From: an uncultured virus (IMG/VR IMGVR_UViG_3300037247_000525)
Lineage: Duplodnaviria; Heunggongvirae; Uroviricota; Caudoviricetes
IMG/VR virus record: IMGVR_UViG_3300037247_000525
Direction: 5' to 3' (one strand)
DNA: 64,000 bases
Translations under genes and position numbers: made by a program
The notes under the pieces: generated by a model
Seen by the model: only the letters and a program-made list of their open reading frames with translations
Database searches by the model: none
What the model was told of the DNA's origin: nothing
Shown: piece after piece, positions 1 to 10,528 of the stretch
Layout: each line of letters starts with the position of its first letter
Position numbering within the stretch: the first letter of the stretch is position 1

Positions 1-50
1 GGGTTGAAGTGCGGAAGTCTACCACGTGCCGGCAGCCCTGCCGGAGAATT

Positions 51-368
51 CTAGTCGAGTACCGAGGAAATCCATTCGGTCAGGAATCCAGGACCGTCGG
101 GCGTTCGCCGCTCCGGCGCCTTCAGCAACAGGTGCACCGCGGCGTCCACGCCGTCGGCGCCCGTCCACTCGTCCGTCCACATGGCGACGTAGTCGGGGAT
201 CACGCACGTCATGCCGGTCTGGTCGACGCCGTGCGGCGGGTTGCCGAGGCGCACCGACTTCCATTCGAAGACGAAGTACGCCAGCAACAGGTTGAGGAGC
301 CCGGGCTGGTTCTCGGCGATCCTGCCCAGGTTTCTCTTGGAAGGCCGCGTCACAGATAGCGTCTTCAT
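51..368 (-). CDS. hypothetical phage protein
   Basis: ORF MKTLSVTRPS...; ATG at 368 lies 5 nt downstream of a TATGCT box. Confidence 0.6.
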   Translation of the reverse strand: MKTLSVTRPSKRNLGRIAENQPGLLNLLLAYFVFEWKSVRLGNPPHGVDQTGMTCVIPDYVAMWTDEWTGADGVDAAVHLLLKAPERRTPDGPGFLTEWISSVLD

Positions 369-537
369 GCCAGAGCATACGCCTAACCTGCCCCTTTCTC
401 CAGCGGCCGAATCCTCACGCGCCGCCCGTTCCTCGGGATGGTCAACGCCTTCACGATTGCCTCGCTTCGGGACCGAACTGGAATTCGCACGGTGAGTTGA
501 TGTCGGCCGCGCTTCGACGTGACGACCACTGCGTATT

Positions 538-774
538 TCATGGTCCACACTCCTCGCATTCTGCTCGCGCCCGCTTCAGTTGTTCGATGCCAAAGCCCCC
601 CTCGCCAGCGCACGCCGGGCAAATCCCGCGCAGCTGGTCTTCGTAGTAGTCGGCGCGAACGCCACTGACCAACCACCGCACGGTGATGATCGTGGGCTTC
701 GCTTCCTTGCTGATCCTGATGATCTGACCCACGGATCCTGAATCAACCGATCGAACGTACTGGGCGAACTTCAT
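538..774 (-). CDS. small protein with C-terminal CxxCxGxG zinc-finger-like motif
   Basis: MKFAQYVRS...CPACAGEGG...CEECGP; ATGA-type overlap with neighbour. Confidence 0.55.
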   Translation of the reverse strand: MKFAQYVRSVDSGSVGQIIRISKEAKPTIITVRWLVSGVRADYYEDQLRGICPACAGEGGFGIEQLKRARAECEECGP

Positions 775-962
775 GCTTCCTCCGGCGTGAAGCGCGCGGC
801 CAGCCCTGCCCCTACGGCGACCAGCGCGGTCAGCGCGGGCGGCATCATGAACAGGACGAACAGGCCCAGGGTTGCCAGCGTGCTCGCGGCCAGTGCCATT
901 CTGCGTTCCATGCCAGAGCTTACCTCGTGGTTCCAACCACGCGGCAGAAATCCGAAAAAGAA

Positions 963-1187
963 TCAGCCTTGCTGCTCTCGCTTCGCCGAGTCCAGGGCGC
1001 TCTCGCCCGGCCGATCGCCGGGCCGGGTCGCCGCGATCCGGCGCCACTCGTGCGATCCCAGGCGAAGTTCCAACGTGGCGGCCCGACAGGCGCCGCAGAT
1101 GGGCTGCTCCGGGCCTCGCGGCTCGCCGCAGCTGTCGCAGGGCGGTCCGGCAGCGGGGCCATCCTGGGGCATCCTCGGCGTCTCCAT
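963..1187 (-). CDS. small Cys-containing hypothetical protein
   Basis: CDSC...CGAC pairs; directly downstream of a promoter-like element. Confidence 0.5.
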   Translation of the reverse strand: METPRMPQDGPAAGPPCDSCGEPRGPEQPICGACRAATLELRLGSHEWRRIAATRPGDRPGESALDSAKREQQG

Positions 1188-1192
1188 GACAT

Positions 1193-1221
1193 AGCATACG
1201 CCACGTTTACACGTTCCACAA
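1193..1221 (-). promoter_or_regulatory. sigma70-like promoter with CGTGTAAACG motif in spacer
   Basis: minus strand TTGTGG-17 nt-TATGCT, then 5 nt, then ATG. Confidence 0.55.
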
Positions 1222-1283
1222 GAGTTTGTTTCTGGCGCGCGCGGCGCGGGCCCGGGAAAGAATCATGTGCTCACCGGCGGCCA

Positions 1284-1520
1284 TCATTCCGGTAGGCCGA
1301 ACTCGTCTTTGCCGCGGGCGAACTCAGGATTCAGCCAGCCAACCCAGCACCACACGCCTGGACCCTTCAAGCGCCACACGCCGTGGCGCGCGCCCATCAT
1401 CTCGGCCAGCAGCCGGTTCACCAGCAGCTCGCGCGGGTAGTAGCCCGTCGTGTTCCACACCCTGGCGAAGTCCGCCAGGATGAAGTCCGGCAGGTCGTCG
1501 GTGTACACGAGGCACTTCAT
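1284..1520 (-). CDS. hypothetical protein
   Basis: ORF in phage-like codon usage, tightly packed. Confidence 0.55.
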   Translation of the reverse strand: MKCLVYTDDLPDFILADFARVWNTTGYYPRELLVNRLLAEMMGARHGVWRLKGPGVWCWVGWLNPEFARGKDEFGLPE

Positions 1521-1674
1521 GACGATGCCTCGATCAACCGGGCCAGTTCCAAGATCACGGCCAGCCGCTTCTTCGCGCGCTGCGTCCGTACCTCTGGGTC
1601 ATTCAGCATGCGTTCGACTAGTTCCAGGATCGCCGCGGCCCGCGCGGCGTTCGTCTTTGGGTGCCTTCAACAGC

Positions 1675-1902
1675 TCATGCGTTTGCCTTGAACCACCGAT
1701 CGCAGGCGGCGACGTGGACGGAGTAGGTCCGCAGTAGGTCGCGCGCCTCTTCCGCGTCTTCGATCACTTCGCCCCGCTTCCGTAATCCGCGCCAACGCGC
1801 GATGATCCGGCGCTGGCCCTGGCGGTAGTCGTCCCGCGTGTTGGCGACGCAGCAAATCAGCTCGTCCAGTAGGTCAGTGTCTGCTTCTTCAGGTGTTACC
1901 AT
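1675..1902 (-). CDS. hypothetical protein
   Basis: ORF MVTPEEADTD... Confidence 0.55.
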   Translation of the reverse strand: MVTPEEADTDLLDELICCVANTRDDYRQGQRRIIARWRGLRKRGEVIEDAEEARDLLRTYSVHVAACDRWFKANA

Positions 1903-1913
1903 AGTTCTAAGTG

Positions 1914-1972
1914 AAAAGGTAGCGACGGGGCCGGTTTGGCGTGCTCATATTTTGGAGCCCGGCCCCGCCGCG
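1914..1972 (-). terminator. GC-rich hairpin / intrinsic terminator downstream of mini-tmRNA
   Basis: GCGGCGGGGCCGG...CCGGCCCCGTCGC stem followed by TACCTTTT. Confidence 0.6.
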
Positions 1973-1973
1973 A

Positions 1974-2088
1974 TGGTGGAAGCGGTGGGAGTTGAACCCA
2001 CGTCCGAGCGGGCAAGGCGCGTTTTAGCTTGGGCCTTTCGCGCTGCGGACTTGCACCGCCGTCCCGTCCGTCGATACCCGTCACTCCC
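1974..2088 (-). ncRNA. ssrA: minimal tmRNA-like RNA (tRNA-like domain with very short internal domain), 115 nt
   Basis: 5' GGGAGTG-ACGGGTATCGAC-GG; 3' GGAC-GTGGG-TTCAACT-CCCAC-CGCTTCC-ACCA; acceptor stem with G3.U70; P2-like helix CGGACGGG/CCCGCTCG; no D-stem or anticodon arm. Confidence 0.8.
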
Positions 2089-2127
2089 AAAAAGAATGCC
2101 GCCGGCGCGCGGGATCGCCGACGGCAT
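2089..2127 (-). terminator. intrinsic terminator-like hairpin abutting 5' end of mini-tmRNA
   Basis: 12-bp stem ATGCCGTCGGCG/CGCCGGCGGCAT followed by TCTTTTT. Confidence 0.65.
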
Positions 2128-2132
2128 GGGGG

Positions 2133-2480
2133 TCAGATTTTCAATGGAGGATTTCCGCACACTGGACCGACGGGCACCAGCTTGGCGTGGTTCATGGCAG
2201 CCTTCGAGCAGAGCCGGGCCCATTTGAACCGCAGCTTGCCGCGTTCGTTGCGCGACCCACGGCGCTCGTCGCTCTCGGCGACGCTCTCCACCAGGAGCCG
2301 TATGAGGGCCAGCAGGTTGCCGCGGGTCAGTCCGGCCCAGAGTGCCAGGGGCGTAGGCTTCGCCTTGTACAAGTAGATGTCGCGCGCCCCACGGACGAAC
2401 AGGGCGACGGACACTGCGCAGGCCGACAGGTAGATCATGCGGGCCAGCTCGACGGTCGGAATGTCTTTTGCATGTATCAT
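2133..2480 (-). CDS. hypothetical membrane-associated protein between tRNA-His and mini-tmRNA
   Basis: MIHAKDIPT... with hydrophobic segments; start placed just after the tRNA CCA. Confidence 0.5.
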   Translation of the reverse strand: MIHAKDIPTVELARMIYLSACAVSVALFVRGARDIYLYKAKPTPLALWAGLTRGNLLALIRLLVESVAESDERRGSRNERGKLRFKWARLCSKAAMNHAKLVPVGPVCGNPPLKI

Positions 2481-2484
2481 TGAA

Positions 2485-2558
2485 TGGTCGCCGGTCCAGG
2501 AATCGAACCTGAGCCTCCAGTGCCACAAACTGGTGTTCTACCATTGAACTACCCGACG
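2485..2558 (-). tRNA. tRNA-His (GTG)
   Basis: cloverleaf CGTCGGG-TA-GTTC AATGGTA GAAC-A-CCAGT TTGTGGC ACTGG-...-TCAGG TTCGATT CCTGG-ACCGGCG-A-CCA. Confidence 0.9.
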
Positions 2559-2908
2559 TTTCGACTCATCAGCTTGTTGACCTGCGCGGCGTACGCGGCG
2601 TGCAGCTCGGTGAACTTCCCAGCCGGCAGCGCAGAGACGGCCTCCAAGTACGTCGTCGGCTTCACGCCTAGTTCGCGCGCCGCTTCGAGCACGGCCACCT
2701 CGTAAGCCTTCACCAGCCGAAGCCGCTCGCCCAGCAGCCCCTTCAGCTTCTTCCGTGACAGCGTGCGCAGCGTGTCGCCGGAGCTGAAGCAGTCGCGCAC
2801 CAAGCACAGCGCGCGGCTGAACTCGTCGACCGGGTCGACCAGCTCTAGCAGGTCCATCACGGGCCCAGTGTCGGGATGCTGCCGCATGCTCTCGTACAGG
2901 TGGTTCAT
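2549..2908 (-). CDS. hypothetical protein
   Basis: ORF; 3' end overlaps the 5' end of tRNA-His. Confidence 0.65.
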   Translation of the reverse strand: MNHLYESMRQHPDTGPVMDLLELVDPVDEFSRALCLVRDCFSSGDTLRTLSRKKLKGLLGERLRLVKAYEVAVLEAARELGVKPTTYLEAVSALPAGKFTELHAAYAAQVNKLMSRNVG

Positions 2909-3225
2909 GCCTTCAGCCGGTCGTTTCGAAACTTCGCGTAGTCCTCGGCGTCGCCGCGATTGTGAAAGTAGCCCACGGTCGTGTTCGTCTCGGAGTCGAA
3001 CACGTCCTCATTGTTCTCACAAAGTCGATACCGCGGCAGCGGCTCTTCCTGGCACGTGAACGCCCAGTGGTCGCCGGGTAGGTTCGTATCCAACACAGCG
3101 TCATCGTCCAGCACCCCGCACGTCAGCCTCGTGGCCCCCATCAGGTACCCCACGTTGCCGTCCGGGTAGTGGTCGGTCAGGAGGATGGACTTCAACACGG
3201 CGTTGCTAAATGTGAATCGCTTCAT
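2905..3225 (-). CDS. hypothetical protein
   Basis: ATGA-coupled ORF. Confidence 0.65.
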   Translation of the reverse strand: MKRFTFSNAVLKSILLTDHYPDGNVGYLMGATRLTCGVLDDDAVLDTNLPGDHWAFTCQEEPLPRYRLCENNEDVFDSETNTTVGYFHNRGDAEDYAKFRNDRLKA

Positions 3226-4517
3226 GATTTGCAGCCTCTACTGCACGGGCTCGGTTCGTCGTTGAACGGGTTGATCCAGGTGCCGGTGCCCTTGCACTCT
3301 TCGCATTGTCGCCGTTCGGCGACATTTGGCTTCGTGTCACCGCTCGGCGACACCAAGTCGTAGGACGTGATCAGGCCGCCCACCGCCTTCTTGTTCCGGC
3401 TGACGAAGTCGATGATCGACTCATCGGCATCCCTGTCGAACACCGCGGTCGGCTTGATCGGCATCGTATCGGGATCGGAGGCCACGACCCCAGGCGCCAC
3501 CTCGATGACCACCATGCCGTCGTCCTTCCACTTGACCACGCGGCCGATGTATGTCCCGCCGGGCCCCGTATAGGCAAGGCTGCCGCAGATGTTCAGCTTG
3601 CTGGGGTCGTACGTGACGAACACGTTCGGGGCCACGTTCACCATGTTCCGGTGACGAGCCTCCTTGGGTGAGATTGCCGGCGGCAGCTCCATGTCCAGCA
3701 GCACCTGCACGTTGCCGTCGGCGCATACCTTGGTCACGGTACCCCAGCATTCCGAGTGCGCACTGGTCTCCACGCGCACGCGGTCGTAGGGCTTGAACCA
3801 CACGCCGGTCGGGTGCTTGCAGTAGCAGGTGACCCGCGGCGCATTGGTCTTGGCGAGTCTTTCGAGTCCTAGCTCGCCCAGGTGCTCCTCGCCGAGCCCA
3901 CGCCACGTGATGCTCTCGCTGAGTACCTTCAGCGGCTGCTGGATCTCGTCACGGGTCGCCGGCGGCGGCGACAGCATGCTGGCTGCGGCAAGCCAGCGTC
4001 GCTCCTGCTCGCCGGACATTATCCACCGCGTCGGATGCAGTCCCGTGTCCGCTTTGATCGCGGCCGTCGCCTTGCGTATGTCTTCCATGACGTCGCCGGG
4101 CGGGTTGTCCCGGCTGGTGGCCAATGGGCAGTCGGCCTTGTGCTCTTGCTCCCACATCGCGCCACAACAGGGCTGGAAGGTCGGGTCCATTATACCGCCG
4201 GGCGGGTTGTCCAAGACGGTCTTGGGCTCTTCCTCGTCCTCGATCGTCATCTGGTACAGCGACAGGATGAACTCGCGGGCGTCGGGCTGCTCGTCGAAAT
4301 GGTCCTTGATCGCCAGCATTTGCAGCTCGCGGCCGTGGGCGCCCATCTTGAACCGACCCGCGGCGGAGGTCGTCCTGGTGTAATCACCCATCTCGCGGTG
4401 CACTAGCGCCAGGAACTGAGCCTGCTCGTCGCCGCCCATGTGGGCGAACGCCTTGGCCATCATGGGCAGGTCCAGATCCACGTCGGTTTCGATGCGAACC
4501 TTCACTGGGTTCTTCAT
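3222..4517 (-). CDS. multi-module hypothetical protein with C-terminal CxxCxGTG zinc-finger-like motif
   Basis: 431 aa ORF, repeated DNPPG(G/D), ends CEECKGTG...PCSRGCKS. Confidence 0.7.
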   Translation of the reverse strand: MKNPVKVRIETDVDLDLPMMAKAFAHMGGDEQAQFLALVHREMGDYTRTTSAAGRFKMGAHGRELQMLAIKDHFDEQPDAREFILSLYQMTIEDEEEPKTVLDNPPGGIMDPTFQPCCGAMWEQEHKADCPLATSRDNPPGDVMEDIRKATAAIKADTGLHPTRWIMSGEQERRWLAAASMLSPPPATRDEIQQPLKVLSESITWRGLGEEHLGELGLERLAKTNAPRVTCYCKHPTGVWFKPYDRVRVETSAHSECWGTVTKVCADGNVQVLLDMELPPAISPKEARHRNMVNVAPNVFVTYDPSKLNICGSLAYTGPGGTYIGRVVKWKDDGMVVIEVAPGVVASDPDTMPIKPTAVFDRDADESIIDFVSRNKKAVGGLITSYDLVSPSGDTKPNVAERRQCEECKGTGTWINPFNDEPSPCSRGCKS

Positions 4518-4722
4518 CTTGGTACTCCGTTGGCCGTGGCCTCACTTCGATCCGGCACGCCGTCGCGGGCGTTGATCTGTTCGCGCCCGTCGCGGCGCTG
4601 GGAAGCCCACTCGGACAGCTCGCCAAAGGCTTTGGCCCGGTCGGTCGGGTGCAGGTTACGAAACTCGTCGTCCACGTCCCGCTTGACGCGGTAGAGCTGC
4701 TCGTCCTTGTGGTTGTACGTCA

Positions 4723-5007
4723 TCAGTCGGTCCCCAGGTCGAAGACGAACCACGGCGCGAGGCCGTTCAGGGTCACGGCGACGCCGACGAAGAGGCCCAA
4801 CGCTGTGTCCACGTCGAACGGCACACCTTGGCCGATGACGGACAGCCGCCGCTTCACGAACGGCGCCATGGGTTTGACGCGGGCCCAAAGGACCACGCTG
4901 TCGTTGACGCTGTCGACGTGCAGGATGGTAGCCCCCTCGGGCATGTTCAAGTCGACGAGTCCTTGATCGCTGGGAAGGATGTACTTGTAGATCACGTGTG
5001 CACTCAT
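4723..5007 (-). CDS. conserved small phage protein
   Basis: IYKYIL...MPEGATILHV...LWARV...VIGQG pattern typical of a phage hypothetical family. Confidence 0.6.
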   Translation of the reverse strand: MSAHVIYKYILPSDQGLVDLNMPEGATILHVDSVNDSVVLWARVKPMAPFVKRRLSVIGQGVPFDVDTALGLFVGVAVTLNGLAPWFVFDLGTD

Positions 5008-5023
5008 GTTTCGTTCCTCAATT

Positions 5024-5515
5024 TCAGAAGTCTATCCCACGATGGCGGTGTTGGTCGGACAACCTCATGAAAACTTCACCCTCGGGCAGCGGGCAGTCTT
5101 CGATCCATTCCATGTTGCGCTTCATCGTCCAACCGGGGACGTCCGGCACGTCTACACCGGCGAAGACGTTTACACGCCGGCTACCGCGCAGTTTTGGTAG
5201 CGCCAAAAATGGCGCGACGTCCGCCTGCTCATGCAGCGTGACGGTCACTCCGTCCAAGAACAGCATCACTTGCGGCAGCTTTTGTGGCTTGGCGGTGTAG
5301 AGGATGATCGACGCGAACGACTGCCGTCGAATGGTGGTTGCGACCTCGACGACCAGCCTGGGATTCAGCATCGGCTCGCCGCCGGTCAGGACCACCATGT
5401 CGTAGCCACGGAAATCCGTGGCTACGGGCAGCGCGTCCAGGTCCCACTGATTGTTGCAGCAGCCCGGGCACGTGCGGTTGCACGACGAGAACAGGAGTAG
5501 GCGCAGTACCTTCAC
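5024..5515 (-). CDS. short radical SAM protein
   Basis: CNRTCPGC (CxxxCxxC) and LTGGEP motifs. Confidence 0.8.
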   Translation of the reverse strand: MKVLRLLLFSSCNRTCPGCCNNQWDLDALPVATDFRGYDMVVLTGGEPMLNPRLVVEVATTIRRQSFASIILYTAKPQKLPQVMLFLDGVTVTLHEQADVAPFLALPKLRGSRRVNVFAGVDVPDVPGWTMKRNMEWIEDCPLPEGEVFMRLSDQHRHRGIDF

Positions 5516-6156
5516 GGCTTGCATCCCTTGCTGCACGGGTGCATGAACCCGTTCGTCAGCCCAGTGTCGAAGCACTCGGGGCACTTCGGCTTCGTGAACA
5601 TGTCCTTTGGTGGTGGTGCCACGAATGGGTTCGGCCCCAGGGCCGGCTTCGATACGACCCCGCCCGTAGCCGGGAGCAGCATCTTGCGTAGCAGCGGGGA
5701 GCTGATCGCGTGCCCCAGCACGCTAATCAGTGCACGGTCGGCCGATTGTGCTAAGATGTCGCGCGGATTGATCGCAAACTTCAAGTCCTGGTCGCTCACG
5801 GCGTCGTTCATGGAGACCACTTGCCCGCCTTGGAAGTCCAGCGTACCGTCGTCGTTCATAGTCAGGCTCTGCACCGTCGCTACGTGGATGGTGTCGCAAT
5901 GCGAAGCACGCTGGTCCGCGTCGAGCGTGACGAGGTGGAACGTCTCGCCGGTGCGCGCGGCCGGCGGCCCAGCCACCACGTCCACGGATATGTTCGGGTT
6001 GCCGTGTCGTCGAAGGATGGCTGACGACACGCCGGCCACGTCAGATACGAGCTGGATAGTCGTCACGTCGATCAGCTTCTTGCCGGTGTCCGCGTCGTAG
6101 ATCCCCAGGTCGCGCGGGTCGCCGACATTGCCACGTATGTAGATTCGCTTCGTCAT
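5512..6156 (-). CDS. hypothetical protein with C-terminal zinc-finger-like motif
   Basis: ends CPECFDTG...PCSKGCKP. Confidence 0.65.
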   Translation of the reverse strand: MTKRIYIRGNVGDPRDLGIYDADTGKKLIDVTTIQLVSDVAGVSSAILRRHGNPNISVDVVAGPPAARTGETFHLVTLDADQRASHCDTIHVATVQSLTMNDDGTLDFQGGQVVSMNDAVSDQDLKFAINPRDILAQSADRALISVLGHAISSPLLRKMLLPATGGVVSKPALGPNPFVAPPPKDMFTKPKCPECFDTGLTNGFMHPCSKGCKP

Positions 6157-9710: not shown

Positions 9711-10001
9711 CTACTTGTCTTTGGGGTGCAGGCGTATGACTGCCCAGCGATGCTCTCGCAGCCATCCGCGCTCAGGATTCCAGTCGAGGGGCCAGCGTTC
9801 CGTGACGCCGGTCTCGCAATCGACGGACATGAAATCCATGTTGGTGATGTCCTTGCCCGTGTAGGCGTCCAGTATCCTACAATCATCTGCCCCGGGTTCA
9901 CCTGCCTTGAGCCTAGGCACGTCGCTCTTGAGCCGTGGCAGTTTTAGGCCGAAGATGGGGATGGCCGCCAGTGCGCCGGCCAGGAAGTTACGTCTGTTCA
10001 T
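9711..10001 (-). CDS. small protein with twin-arginine signal-like N-terminus
   Basis: MNRRNFLAGALAAIPIFG. Confidence 0.55.
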   Translation of the reverse strand: MNRRNFLAGALAAIPIFGLKLPRLKSDVPRLKAGEPGADDCRILDAYTGKDITNMDFMSVDCETGVTERWPLDWNPERGWLREHRWAVIRLHPKDK

Positions 10002-10528
10002 TTCGATAGTTCCTCGCGAGTTCCAGTCAAGAACTCGAACCGCTCCAGGAACTTGCGCTTGGCCACGTCCCAGGTCCACGGCCTGATCGGCAGCGCAGGG
10101 TAGGGCTCTACGTTCTTGACGGACACCCACAGCTTGAAGTTGAACGCCTGCGCCTCAGTGACTAGTAGCCGCATGTCGATTTCCTTCACGCGCGGATCGA
10201 ACTCGACCGGCAGCCCGAACTTCTTTCGGATGACGTCCTCTAGTTTGAACTCGATCATCTGGTATCCAGGCAGCAGCTTCTTCAGTGGTGACGGCATGTC
10301 ACCGACGTACGCTTCCTGCGCGTCGTGCATCAGGGCTTGCAGTTCCAAGCCCGGAGGTGCCACTAGGCTGGCGAGCACGGAGTGCTGCGCCACGCTGTAC
10401 GGGAACGGAGTGTGCCCGTTGTAGCGGTTCGTCAGTGCCAGCGCGTGGGCAATGTCTTCGATGCAGATCGTATCAGGGTCAGGATTGCGGAAATCCAGGA
10501 AGCTACCGCTGCGGGTCTGTAGGAACAT
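9998..10528 (-). CDS. HD-domain phosphohydrolase (YfdR-like 5'-deoxynucleotidase)
   Basis: EDIAHAL...RYNGH...YSVAQHS...LMHDAQEAYVGD. Confidence 0.88.
   Translation of the reverse strand: MFLQTRSGSFLDFRNPDPDTICIEDIAHALALTNRYNGHTPFPYSVAQHSVLASLVAPPGLELQALMHDAQEAYVGDMPSPLKKLLPGYQMIEFKLEDVIRKKFGLPVEFDPRVKEIDMRLLVTEAQAFNFKLWVSVKNVEPYPALPIRPWTWDVAKRKFLERFEFLTGTREELSK

Follow-up and report, generated by a model that had tools for sequence, protein, structure and literature searches.

Full-length phage tmRNAs are known from the mycobacteriophage Bxz1 group and Bacillus phage G, and marine phages such as phage Melnitz carry two-piece forms (PMC4131195, PMC9004378). The closest described system to the locus presented here is 'Mycobacterium phage DS6A (TLD only)', which was listed by Hudson, Lau and Williams in 2014 and has little beyond the tRNA-like domain, TLD (PMC4131195). 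It corresponds to Phage__Mycobacterium.9 of the 2025 tmRNA database paper, which states that inhibition of the endogenous tmRNA by this form has been shown in E. coli (PMC11915505). The 2014 source, citing Mao et al. 2009, states that a molecule like the DS6A RNA strongly inhibits tmRNA whether it is chargeable or not, perhaps by titration of SmpB (PMC4131195). In organelles, CDS-less mitochondrial and plastid tmRNAs, including plastid forms of approximately 65 bp in Mallomonadaceae, are thought to work with SmpB (PMC11915505). The surveys of phage tmRNA consulted here rely on ARAGORN (PMC9004378, PMC7162821), and our literature search found no report of phage short forms other than DS6A. In the genome record of that phage, the element lies at JN698994 28478-28560(+) and is unannotated; it is 83 nt long, scores 43.2 bits and ends in ACTA.

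The preliminary description of the locus studied here had assigned tag-less tmRNAs mainly to jakobid and oomycete mitochondria. This was right for the organellar forms, but it was incomplete, as phage DS6A was omitted (PMC4131195). The novelty implied for the locus was overstated as well, since phage 'TLD only' tmRNA was published in 2014 and 2025 (PMC4131195, PMC11915505) and short tmRNA forms proved to be frequent in phage contigs. The proposed sequestration of SmpB had likewise already been printed for the DS6A element (PMC4131195).

A tag-less mini-tmRNA gene in a tailed phage

The window (the whole 64,000-nt stretch analysed, IMG/VR record IMGVR_UViG_3300037247_000525) is the DNA of a tailed phage. 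It encodes a large terminase, portal, head morphogenesis, major head, tape measure and tail proteins, together with DNA polymerase, primase, helicases, a sigma factor and proteins of nucleotide metabolism, and nearly all of these genes lie on the minus strand, as does the RNA gene. The major head protein shares approximately 50% identity with its counterparts in Roseobacter phage RDJL Phi 1, Pseudomonas phages RSP/KPP23 and Rhizobium RHEph phages (siphoviruses), so the host is probably a proteobacterium. Neither an integrase nor SmpB or any other translation factor was found among the 54 window proteins scanned. BLAST searches against annotated phages gave no match for 1 kb around the gene, and the 115 nt alone produced just one 29-nt match, between the T-arm and a tRNA-Ser. 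Nine of 401 sampled genomes of one phylum contained a tmRNA 3' end within three mismatches, which was uninformative for the host or donor lineage.

The minus strand of 1974-2088 holds a mini-tmRNA gene of 115 nt, and its sequence is identical to that transcribed in the preliminary description. A whole-window Rfam scan returned two gathering-level matches, a tRNA at 2488-2558(-) and tmRNA (RF00023) at 1974-2088(-). The latter exceeded the gathering score of 47 with 58.3 bits (E 2.8e-20), which is far outside chance expectation, and extended over model positions 1-374, with 44 nt standing in place of about 300 model positions. The parts aligned to RF00023 were the G3.U70 acceptor, the 5' GG..UCGAC, the first P2 pairs, the GGAC linker, the T-arm, the discriminator A and the CCA. 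The covariance model of its own subfamily (R1, see below) gave 127.6 bits. ARAGORN, in contrast to Rfam, made no call and found no tag at 1974-2088; its sole call in the window was tRNA-His at 2485-2558(-). This tRNA-His gene (GTG) lies 400 nt upstream of the mini-tmRNA. The parts of the locus are listed below, where the RNA position equals 2089 minus the window coordinate.

1974..2088, minus strand: whole mini-tmRNA gene; RF00023 58.3 bits, R1 127.6 bits
2082..2088, minus strand: acceptor 5' strand, RNA 1-7 (GGGAGUG), pairs with 1978-1984; 7/7 positions paired in 7/7 aligned members
2071..2081, minus strand: 5' 'D-loop analogue' motif, RNA 8-18, ..GGGUAUCGA; aligns to the Rfam consensus block GGaUUCGAC
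2063..2070, minus strand: P2 5' strand, RNA 19-26, pairs with 2005-2012; A.C mismatch at RNA 22/81
2045..2059, minus strand: internal hairpin 1, RNA 30-44, 4-bp stem and 7-nt loop UGCAAGU; stem and loop size kept in the subfamily
2017..2043, minus strand: internal hairpin 2, RNA 46-72, 5-bp stem and 17-nt A-rich loop AAAGGCCCAAGCUAAAA; assigned from subfamily pairing
2005..2012, minus strand: P2 3' strand, RNA 77-84; assigned from subfamily covariation
1985..2004, minus strand: GAC linker, RNA 85-87, and T-arm, RNA 88-104 (GUGGG-UUCAACU-CCCAC); fits the Rfam consensus GGACGcGGGUUCGAuUCCCgC
1974..1984, minus strand: acceptor 3' strand, RNA 105-111, and discriminator A/CCA, RNA 112-115; assigned from sequence, Rfam and pairing
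2089..2127, minus strand: terminator-like hairpin of the upstream gene, 12 pairs and T-run; abuts the mature 5' end
1911..1967, minus strand: possible 3' hairpin, 9-bp stem (1959-1967/1926-1934), 24-nt loop, then a short T-run; read from the sequence and missed by the terminator scanner because its loop exceeds 8 nt

All the features first attributed to this RNA are present, namely the 7-bp acceptor with G3.U70, the discriminator A, the tmRNA-like 5' segment, the P2a-like helix, the GAC linker and the T-arm. The acceptor stem also contains A4-U69 and U6.G67 pairs, and the 3' end consists of the discriminator A and an encoded CCA. The 5' segment carries the ..GGNNTCGAC motif. P2 comprises eight positions with a single A.C mismatch and is followed by the GAC linker and a T-stem of 5 bp with a 7-nt loop. 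The gene order is non-permuted, no anticodon loop is present, and PK1-PK4 are absent: the mere 44 nt between the P2 strands fold as two simple hairpins. An ordinary tRNA (RF00005, a cloverleaf with an anticodon arm) was rejected, as ARAGORN made no tRNA call and the best family of the Rfam clan was tmRNA. The unconstrained minimum-energy fold of 1974-2088 did not recover the T-arm; the proposed structure was nevertheless retained because it is supported by the comparative analysis. The original reading as a phage-encoded, non-permuted mini-tmRNA has held: on the strength of the Rfam match above cut-off, the covariation in five helices and the phage genes around it, 1974-2088(-) is almost certainly a phage gene for a tag-less mini-tmRNA, a phage tmRNA reduced to the complete TLD of a one-piece form closed round a two-hairpin insert.

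Relatives with the same two-hairpin plan

Short forms were sought in viral, metagenome and genome contigs by pattern scans that demanded the tmRNA 5' motif close to a T-arm, which full-length genes cannot satisfy. Eight sequences, the window and seven others, which come from larger phages unrelated to it, have the same five-helix plan including both internal hairpins, at a length of 111-118 nt. The seven are L097 (= L147, on the 176-kb viral contig G015), L105, L108, L111, L146 (on an 82-kb viral contig), L068 (= L143) and a 116-nt element of G017. R1 was built from six of the eight members, with L146 outside the training set, and scored all eight at 84-139 bits, versus 40-67 bits for other short forms, DS6A included, whose scores derive from the TLD alone. 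L146 reached 112 bits. It was found by a pattern without acceptor constraint, the G017 element was likewise found free of any such constraint, and both retain G3.U70. CCA is encoded in seven of the eight members.

When six sequences were aligned with MAFFT, 93.6% of the cells were paired, versus 40-53% with slid partners, and 12 pairs were changed on both sides, versus 1-4 in the slid controls. The model-fitted alignment A2, covering seven of the eight members, pairs in 96.5% of cells, a figure to be read with a small sample (7-8 sequences, three of them close relatives) and with the fact that A2 was fitted to the model's structure and leans towards it. Changes on both sides occurred in 13 of its 29 pairs (0-2 in slid controls). 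None of 500 shuffles of A2 reached the observed values on four of five measures, and 23 of 500 did so for further pair types. Compensatory changes were present in every helix of A2. The acceptor has three pairs changed on both sides and an invariant G3.U70 in the seven aligned members, and P2 has six of its eight pairs so changed, with 98.2% of cells paired. Hairpin 1 (92.6% of cells paired) contributes one such pair, hairpin 2 (88.2%) two, and the T-arm (100%) a single compensatory pair, U-A/C-G. The D-loop analogue motif (RNA 8-18) is mostly invariant in the subfamily alignment A1, and the ends of the hairpin-2 loop, AAAGGC...AAAA, are kept across the subfamily.

The homologs of equal size with compensatory changes that had been called for thus exist, seven of them, with covariation in all five helices. 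A degenerate one-off deletion, named beforehand as the outcome that would overturn the reading, is contradicted by these seven further members, which keep the plan through compensatory changes in unrelated phages. The insert had been described as about 50 nt of two hairpins that replace pk1-pk4 and the tag frame; the two hairpins were confirmed, but they are not a mere replacement and instead form a conserved module that defines the subfamily. What is new here is this subfamily with its conserved, comparatively predicted two-hairpin insert.

The members other than the window have flanking protein genes in common, whereas the window shares the RNA gene only, and G+C around the gene is 44-58% in the other members versus 63% in the window. 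As the flanks are shared among the others but not with the window, the RNA gene has moved between unrelated phages and stayed intact. Taken as a whole, the comparison shows that tag-less forms of this kind are no accidents but conserved, mobile genes under selection. Full-length tmRNA was not found within 2.5 kb of any of 14 loci with a neighbour gene of the L146/L147 phage group, and in the complete 176-kb phage G015 the mini-tmRNA is the sole match to the tmRNA family. A full-length tmRNA match in G018 is distant from the slot; the record is that of a provirus, and the match may be part of the host. The neighbour proteins of the window and of the L146/L147 group gave no informative Pfam or PHROG matches, save for a conserved WYL_2 (Sm-like SH3 barrel) protein in that group (L147:317-646(-) and L146:210-548(-); Pfam 28.6 bits). 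The order there is the RNA gene, a 160-aa coiled-coil-like ORF and then the WYL_2 protein, which is possibly RNA-binding. The 431-aa neighbour protein has no relatives among the viral contigs. A 52-kb viral contig carries, in the vicinity of a remote homologue of the WYL_2-like gene, a type III hammerhead ribozyme match (L181:1747-1801(+)) whose 48.1 bits fall just short of the gathering score of 48.5.

When the sequences of the eight members were read for a resume codon and tag reading frame, no conserved frame or stop position was observed. The candidate tag ORF GCG AAA GGC CCA AGC TAA in hairpin 2 of the window was rejected, its frame and stop being unconserved among the members. The frame from AAA GGC reaches a stop in four of the eight, three of which are close relatives; this stop lies in the loop in the window and in the P2 strand in the other three.

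Expression signals and a sister phage

In L146, a predicted promoter (TTGACA-17-TATACT) stops 9 nt short of the mature 5' end, and a terminator follows the 3' end at a distance of 30 nt. A comparable promoter, TTGACT-17-TATACT, ends 11 nt before the 5' end in L105, and L111 has a terminator 20 nt past the 3' end. In these relatives the RNA gene is, as its predicted signals read, a self-contained unit. No sigma-70-like promoter was found in window 1500-2800. Given this absence and the abutting terminator, transcription of the window gene would need either a phage-specific promoter or read-through with subsequent cleavage by RNase P. The G017 member is likewise abutted by a hairpin and T-run.

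Two related phage sequences were compared with the window. G001 is a 30-kb fragment with 99.9% identity over window 12626-43063, the gene region being outside the fragment, and is, judged by this identity, essentially the window's own phage. G004 is a complete, collinear 76-kb relative with approximately 73% nucleotide identity. It keeps the gene upstream of the RNA and, after it, the terminator hairpin that corresponds to 2089..2127, but no RNA gene follows that hairpin. A weak R1 match (23.2 bits, E 0.0014) is present in G004 at L026:1937-2031(-). Retained in this copy are the 5' motif, a P2 that is mismatched where the window's is, a remnant of hairpin 1 and the T-arm. Hairpin 2 is gone, the acceptor 3' strand pairs at four of seven positions, G3.U70 and CCA are missing, and the end of an ORF extends over the 5' half. 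The copy and the window gene occupy the same interval between two anchor genes (window 1284-1520 = G004 23-253; window 2133-2480 = G004 9837-10178). We read the G004 element as a decayed mini-tmRNA copy and the gene as ancestral to this phage lineage; since G004 holds just a decayed copy, the gene is dispensable. The tRNA-His of G004 is found elsewhere, at L027:10062-10134, between a helicase gene and the next gene. With this different placement, both small RNA genes are mobile in this lineage.

Other short forms and their detection

Besides the window, the pattern scans yielded 58 distinct forms between 70 and 140 nt long in which the acceptor pairs at 7/7 positions and G3.U70 is present, the latter being partly forced by the pattern. 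Seventeen are 70-86 nt long, 35 are 89-119 nt and six are 121-140 nt, and 30 of the 58 end in ACCA. In the loose scan, 59 of 66 loci lacked a 7/7 acceptor in the tmRNA register and were left out; in the main, these represent ordinary tRNAs or longer genes caught at their 3' ends. The same acceptor criterion removed L138, two Microvirga loci (5/7 acceptor) and, of the 22 viral loci with a short gap, two more. The first pattern used (TCGACGG...) gave four viral loci, none convincing. The tag-less phage forms, as their predicted structures stand, show at least two grades, namely bare TLDs of 70-86 nt and the 111-118-nt two-hairpin subfamily.

ARAGORN also failed at the seven other subfamily members, none of which it called correctly: it reported nothing at the loci of six relatives, two of which were covered again by L191 and L192 with the same outcome. 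Since the program that is standard in phage surveys misses all eight members, the class of tag-less phage tmRNAs is probably under-counted. In G017, a 175-kb phage, L178:1-760(+) (= G017 144825-145605; L194:1501-2281) contains three tandem tRNA-like genes. The first is the 116-nt mini-tmRNA of the window type; the others are an RNA of about 100 nt with a T-arm and a 7-bp acceptor that lacks G3.U70, and a bare TLD of 71 nt. Parts of this tandem are joined by ARAGORN into a 'tmRNA*' with an implausible tag, and this permuted call, which spans two separate small RNA genes, was taken as an artefact.

A motif of the type AAAGCC..., GAAAGGCCCAAG or GCCCAAGUG recurs just inside P2 or in a hairpin loop in short forms of every size, e.g., at window 2030-2041(-) and in L066, L104, L115, L148, L164, L166 and L172. 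It may serve as a binding site or descend from the part of full-length tmRNAs that comes after P2a. A conserved tRNA-like element of about 108 nt was observed in three viral contigs of one sample (L001, L002 and L004; = L032, L070, L079). It has a T-arm and a TCGAC motif and no tmRNA-type acceptor stem; Rfam assigned tRNA at 36 bits to one copy and tmRNA at approximately 19 bits to two. In a Pseudescherichia MAG (G021), a 102-nt form at L140:3001-3102(+) scored 103.5 bits and was the sole strong tmRNA match. It looks like an enterobacterial ssrA with a clean internal deletion and probably arose in assembly, an artefact of the sort rejected in the 2025 tmRNA database paper (PMC11915505); as a plain deletion form it was not counted as a relative.

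Possible functions

G3.U70 and the discriminator A are the AlaRS identity set. SmpB contacts the TLD elbow and P2a, and EF-Tu contacts the charged acceptor arm. We regard competition with host tmRNA as the most likely function, with a confidence slightly short of even: the RNA would compete for SmpB, AlaRS and EF-Tu, and tagging in the infected cell would be damped. The mini-tmRNA would be excised like a tRNA, by RNase P and 3' processing, and would bind host SmpB and probably AlaRS and EF-Tu. It would thereby compete with host tmRNA, because it carries no message, and the outcome would be a damping of trans-translation, above all of the proteolysis tagging of broken-mRNA products during infection. 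This titration model is backed by the reported inhibition of tmRNA by a DS6A-like molecule (PMC4131195, PMC11915505). Two aspects of the subfamily speak against it: the two-hairpin insert, lacking in the 70-86-nt forms, is left unexplained by simple SmpB titration, and so is the retention of G3.U70 and (in 7/8 members) of CCA, if charging is irrelevant to inhibition. Also counted against competition are the abutting terminator and the missing sigma-70-like promoter of the window gene, and the decayed copy in G004. The kept insert and G3.U70/CCA fit ribosome entry better.

Ribosome entry is the core of the main rival, tag-less rescue, which we consider possible and on balance doubtful. Alanyl-mini-tmRNA would enter the empty A site together with SmpB and EF-Tu and take over the nascent chain, and ribosomes stalled on broken phage mRNAs would be freed by drop-off, by a hydrolase or after a few codons in the hairpin-2 loop; phage proteins would be spared because no degradation tag is added. 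We know of no release mechanism for peptidyl-TLD, which counts against the proposal, and the reading frame is unconserved, with the AAA GGC frame stopping in four of eight members. On the other hand, G3.U70, the discriminator A, the T-arm and the 5' motif are all retained, which covers all the features for alanylation and ribosome entry; CCA is encoded in 7/8 members, and the conserved A-rich single-stranded hairpin-2 loop could sit in the mRNA path. Organellar CDS-less tmRNAs are also thought to be functional with SmpB (PMC11915505), although the only experimental precedent gave inhibition rather than rescue (PMC4131195).

It is conceivable, if unlikely, that the two-hairpin insert is a working part and not a scar, and that the subfamily is a distinct functional class. 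In one version, the A-rich hairpin-2 loop would serve as a minimal 'message' that adds no tag, entering the mRNA channel or the decoding centre and allowing release without proteolysis; in the other, the insert would recruit a further partner, one not bound by the 70-86-nt forms. If either is true, phages carry a natural minimal trans-translation substrate.

Quite unlikely, in our estimate, is a decoy role, with the RNA titrating or misleading an anti-phage defence of the host that detects or cuts tmRNA or RNAs resembling tRNA, e.g., through effectors with SmpB-like domains. We know of no experiment that ties SmpB-like-domain defence systems to phage TLDs. No defence-related neighbour was found among the scanned neighbour proteins of the window and the L146/L147 group, the RNA offers no anticodon loop to anticodon nucleases, and the case is purely circumstantial. 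In its favour, the accessory, mobile and patchy distribution is typical of counter-defence, and CoCoNuT Type II and III-A systems have SmpB-like domains predicted to bind tmRNA (PMC11090510).

A non-functional leftover, either an assembly artefact or an internally deleted, decaying derivative of full-length ssrA from phage or host, is very unlikely. Internal-deletion forms do exist, such as the 102-nt form of the Pseudescherichia MAG, large internal deletions in MAGs were rejected by the 2025 tmRNA database paper (PMC11915505), and G004 shows that the element can decay. The predicted covariation largely refutes this reading, as eight members of 111-118 nt keep the same five helices through compensatory changes in unrelated phages. 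Relatives have promoters and terminators of their own, and the window copy is intact where that of G004 is broken. Only two DNA runs, both from marine sediment metagenomes, and no RNA run were listed as containing the stretch. Of the words sampled from window 1-6000, 99% occur in one DNA run, although this run is possibly the source sample and hence not independent. An attP remnant of a phage integrating into ssrA is barely credible: tmRNA genes are common integration sites (PMC11915505, PMC9004378), but the two TLD halves are both present and pair with each other where an attP would bear the 3' part alone, the 54 scanned proteins yielded no integrase, conserved internal hairpins are unexpected in an attP, and the DS6A element lies approximately 10 kb from its integrase, so that the integration-site remnant envisaged in the preliminary description was not borne out.

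If these RNAs block or bypass host trans-translation, they would represent a general phage strategy against ribosome rescue. Mini-tmRNAs also constitute a ready-made minimal ligand for studying recognition by SmpB, AlaRS and the ribosome. With DS6A, both the kind and the leading hypothesis are already published; the class is under-annotated.

Comparison with known tmRNAs

The one-piece bacterial tmRNA (RF00023) shares with the window RNA the whole TLD and P2 in the same order, but it has PK1-PK4, a resume codon and a tag frame, all three of which the window RNA is without. Full-length phage tmRNAs belong to the same family and are phage-encoded; they have kept the tag frame that is absent here. 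Organellar CDS-less tmRNAs of jakobid and oomycete mitochondria and Mallomonadaceae plastids similarly have no tag frame (PMC11915505). Contrasted by their description, they are shorter and vertically inherited, whereas the window RNA is phage-borne and mobile and has an extra insert. The engineered TLD-like inhibitor of Mao et al. 2009 (via PMC4131195), artificial and tested in E. coli, serves as the functional model for competition with host tmRNA.

The DS6A element is alike in being phage-encoded, non-permuted and reduced to the TLD, with G3.U70, the 5' ..TCGAC, P2 and a T-arm, and without a tag frame. It differs in its length of 83 nt, a single small insert, the lack of an encoded CCA, a T-stem of GCGAG/CUCGC and a score below the Rfam cut-off, whereas the window RNA has 115 nt, an encoded CCA, 58.3 bits and the conserved 44-nt two-hairpin insert. 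The two have no detectable kinship beyond the TLD (R1 41.7 bits for DS6A versus 84-139 for the subfamily), and their host phyla probably differ. The window element belongs to the published kind, phage TLD-only tmRNA, as a distinct longer subfamily.
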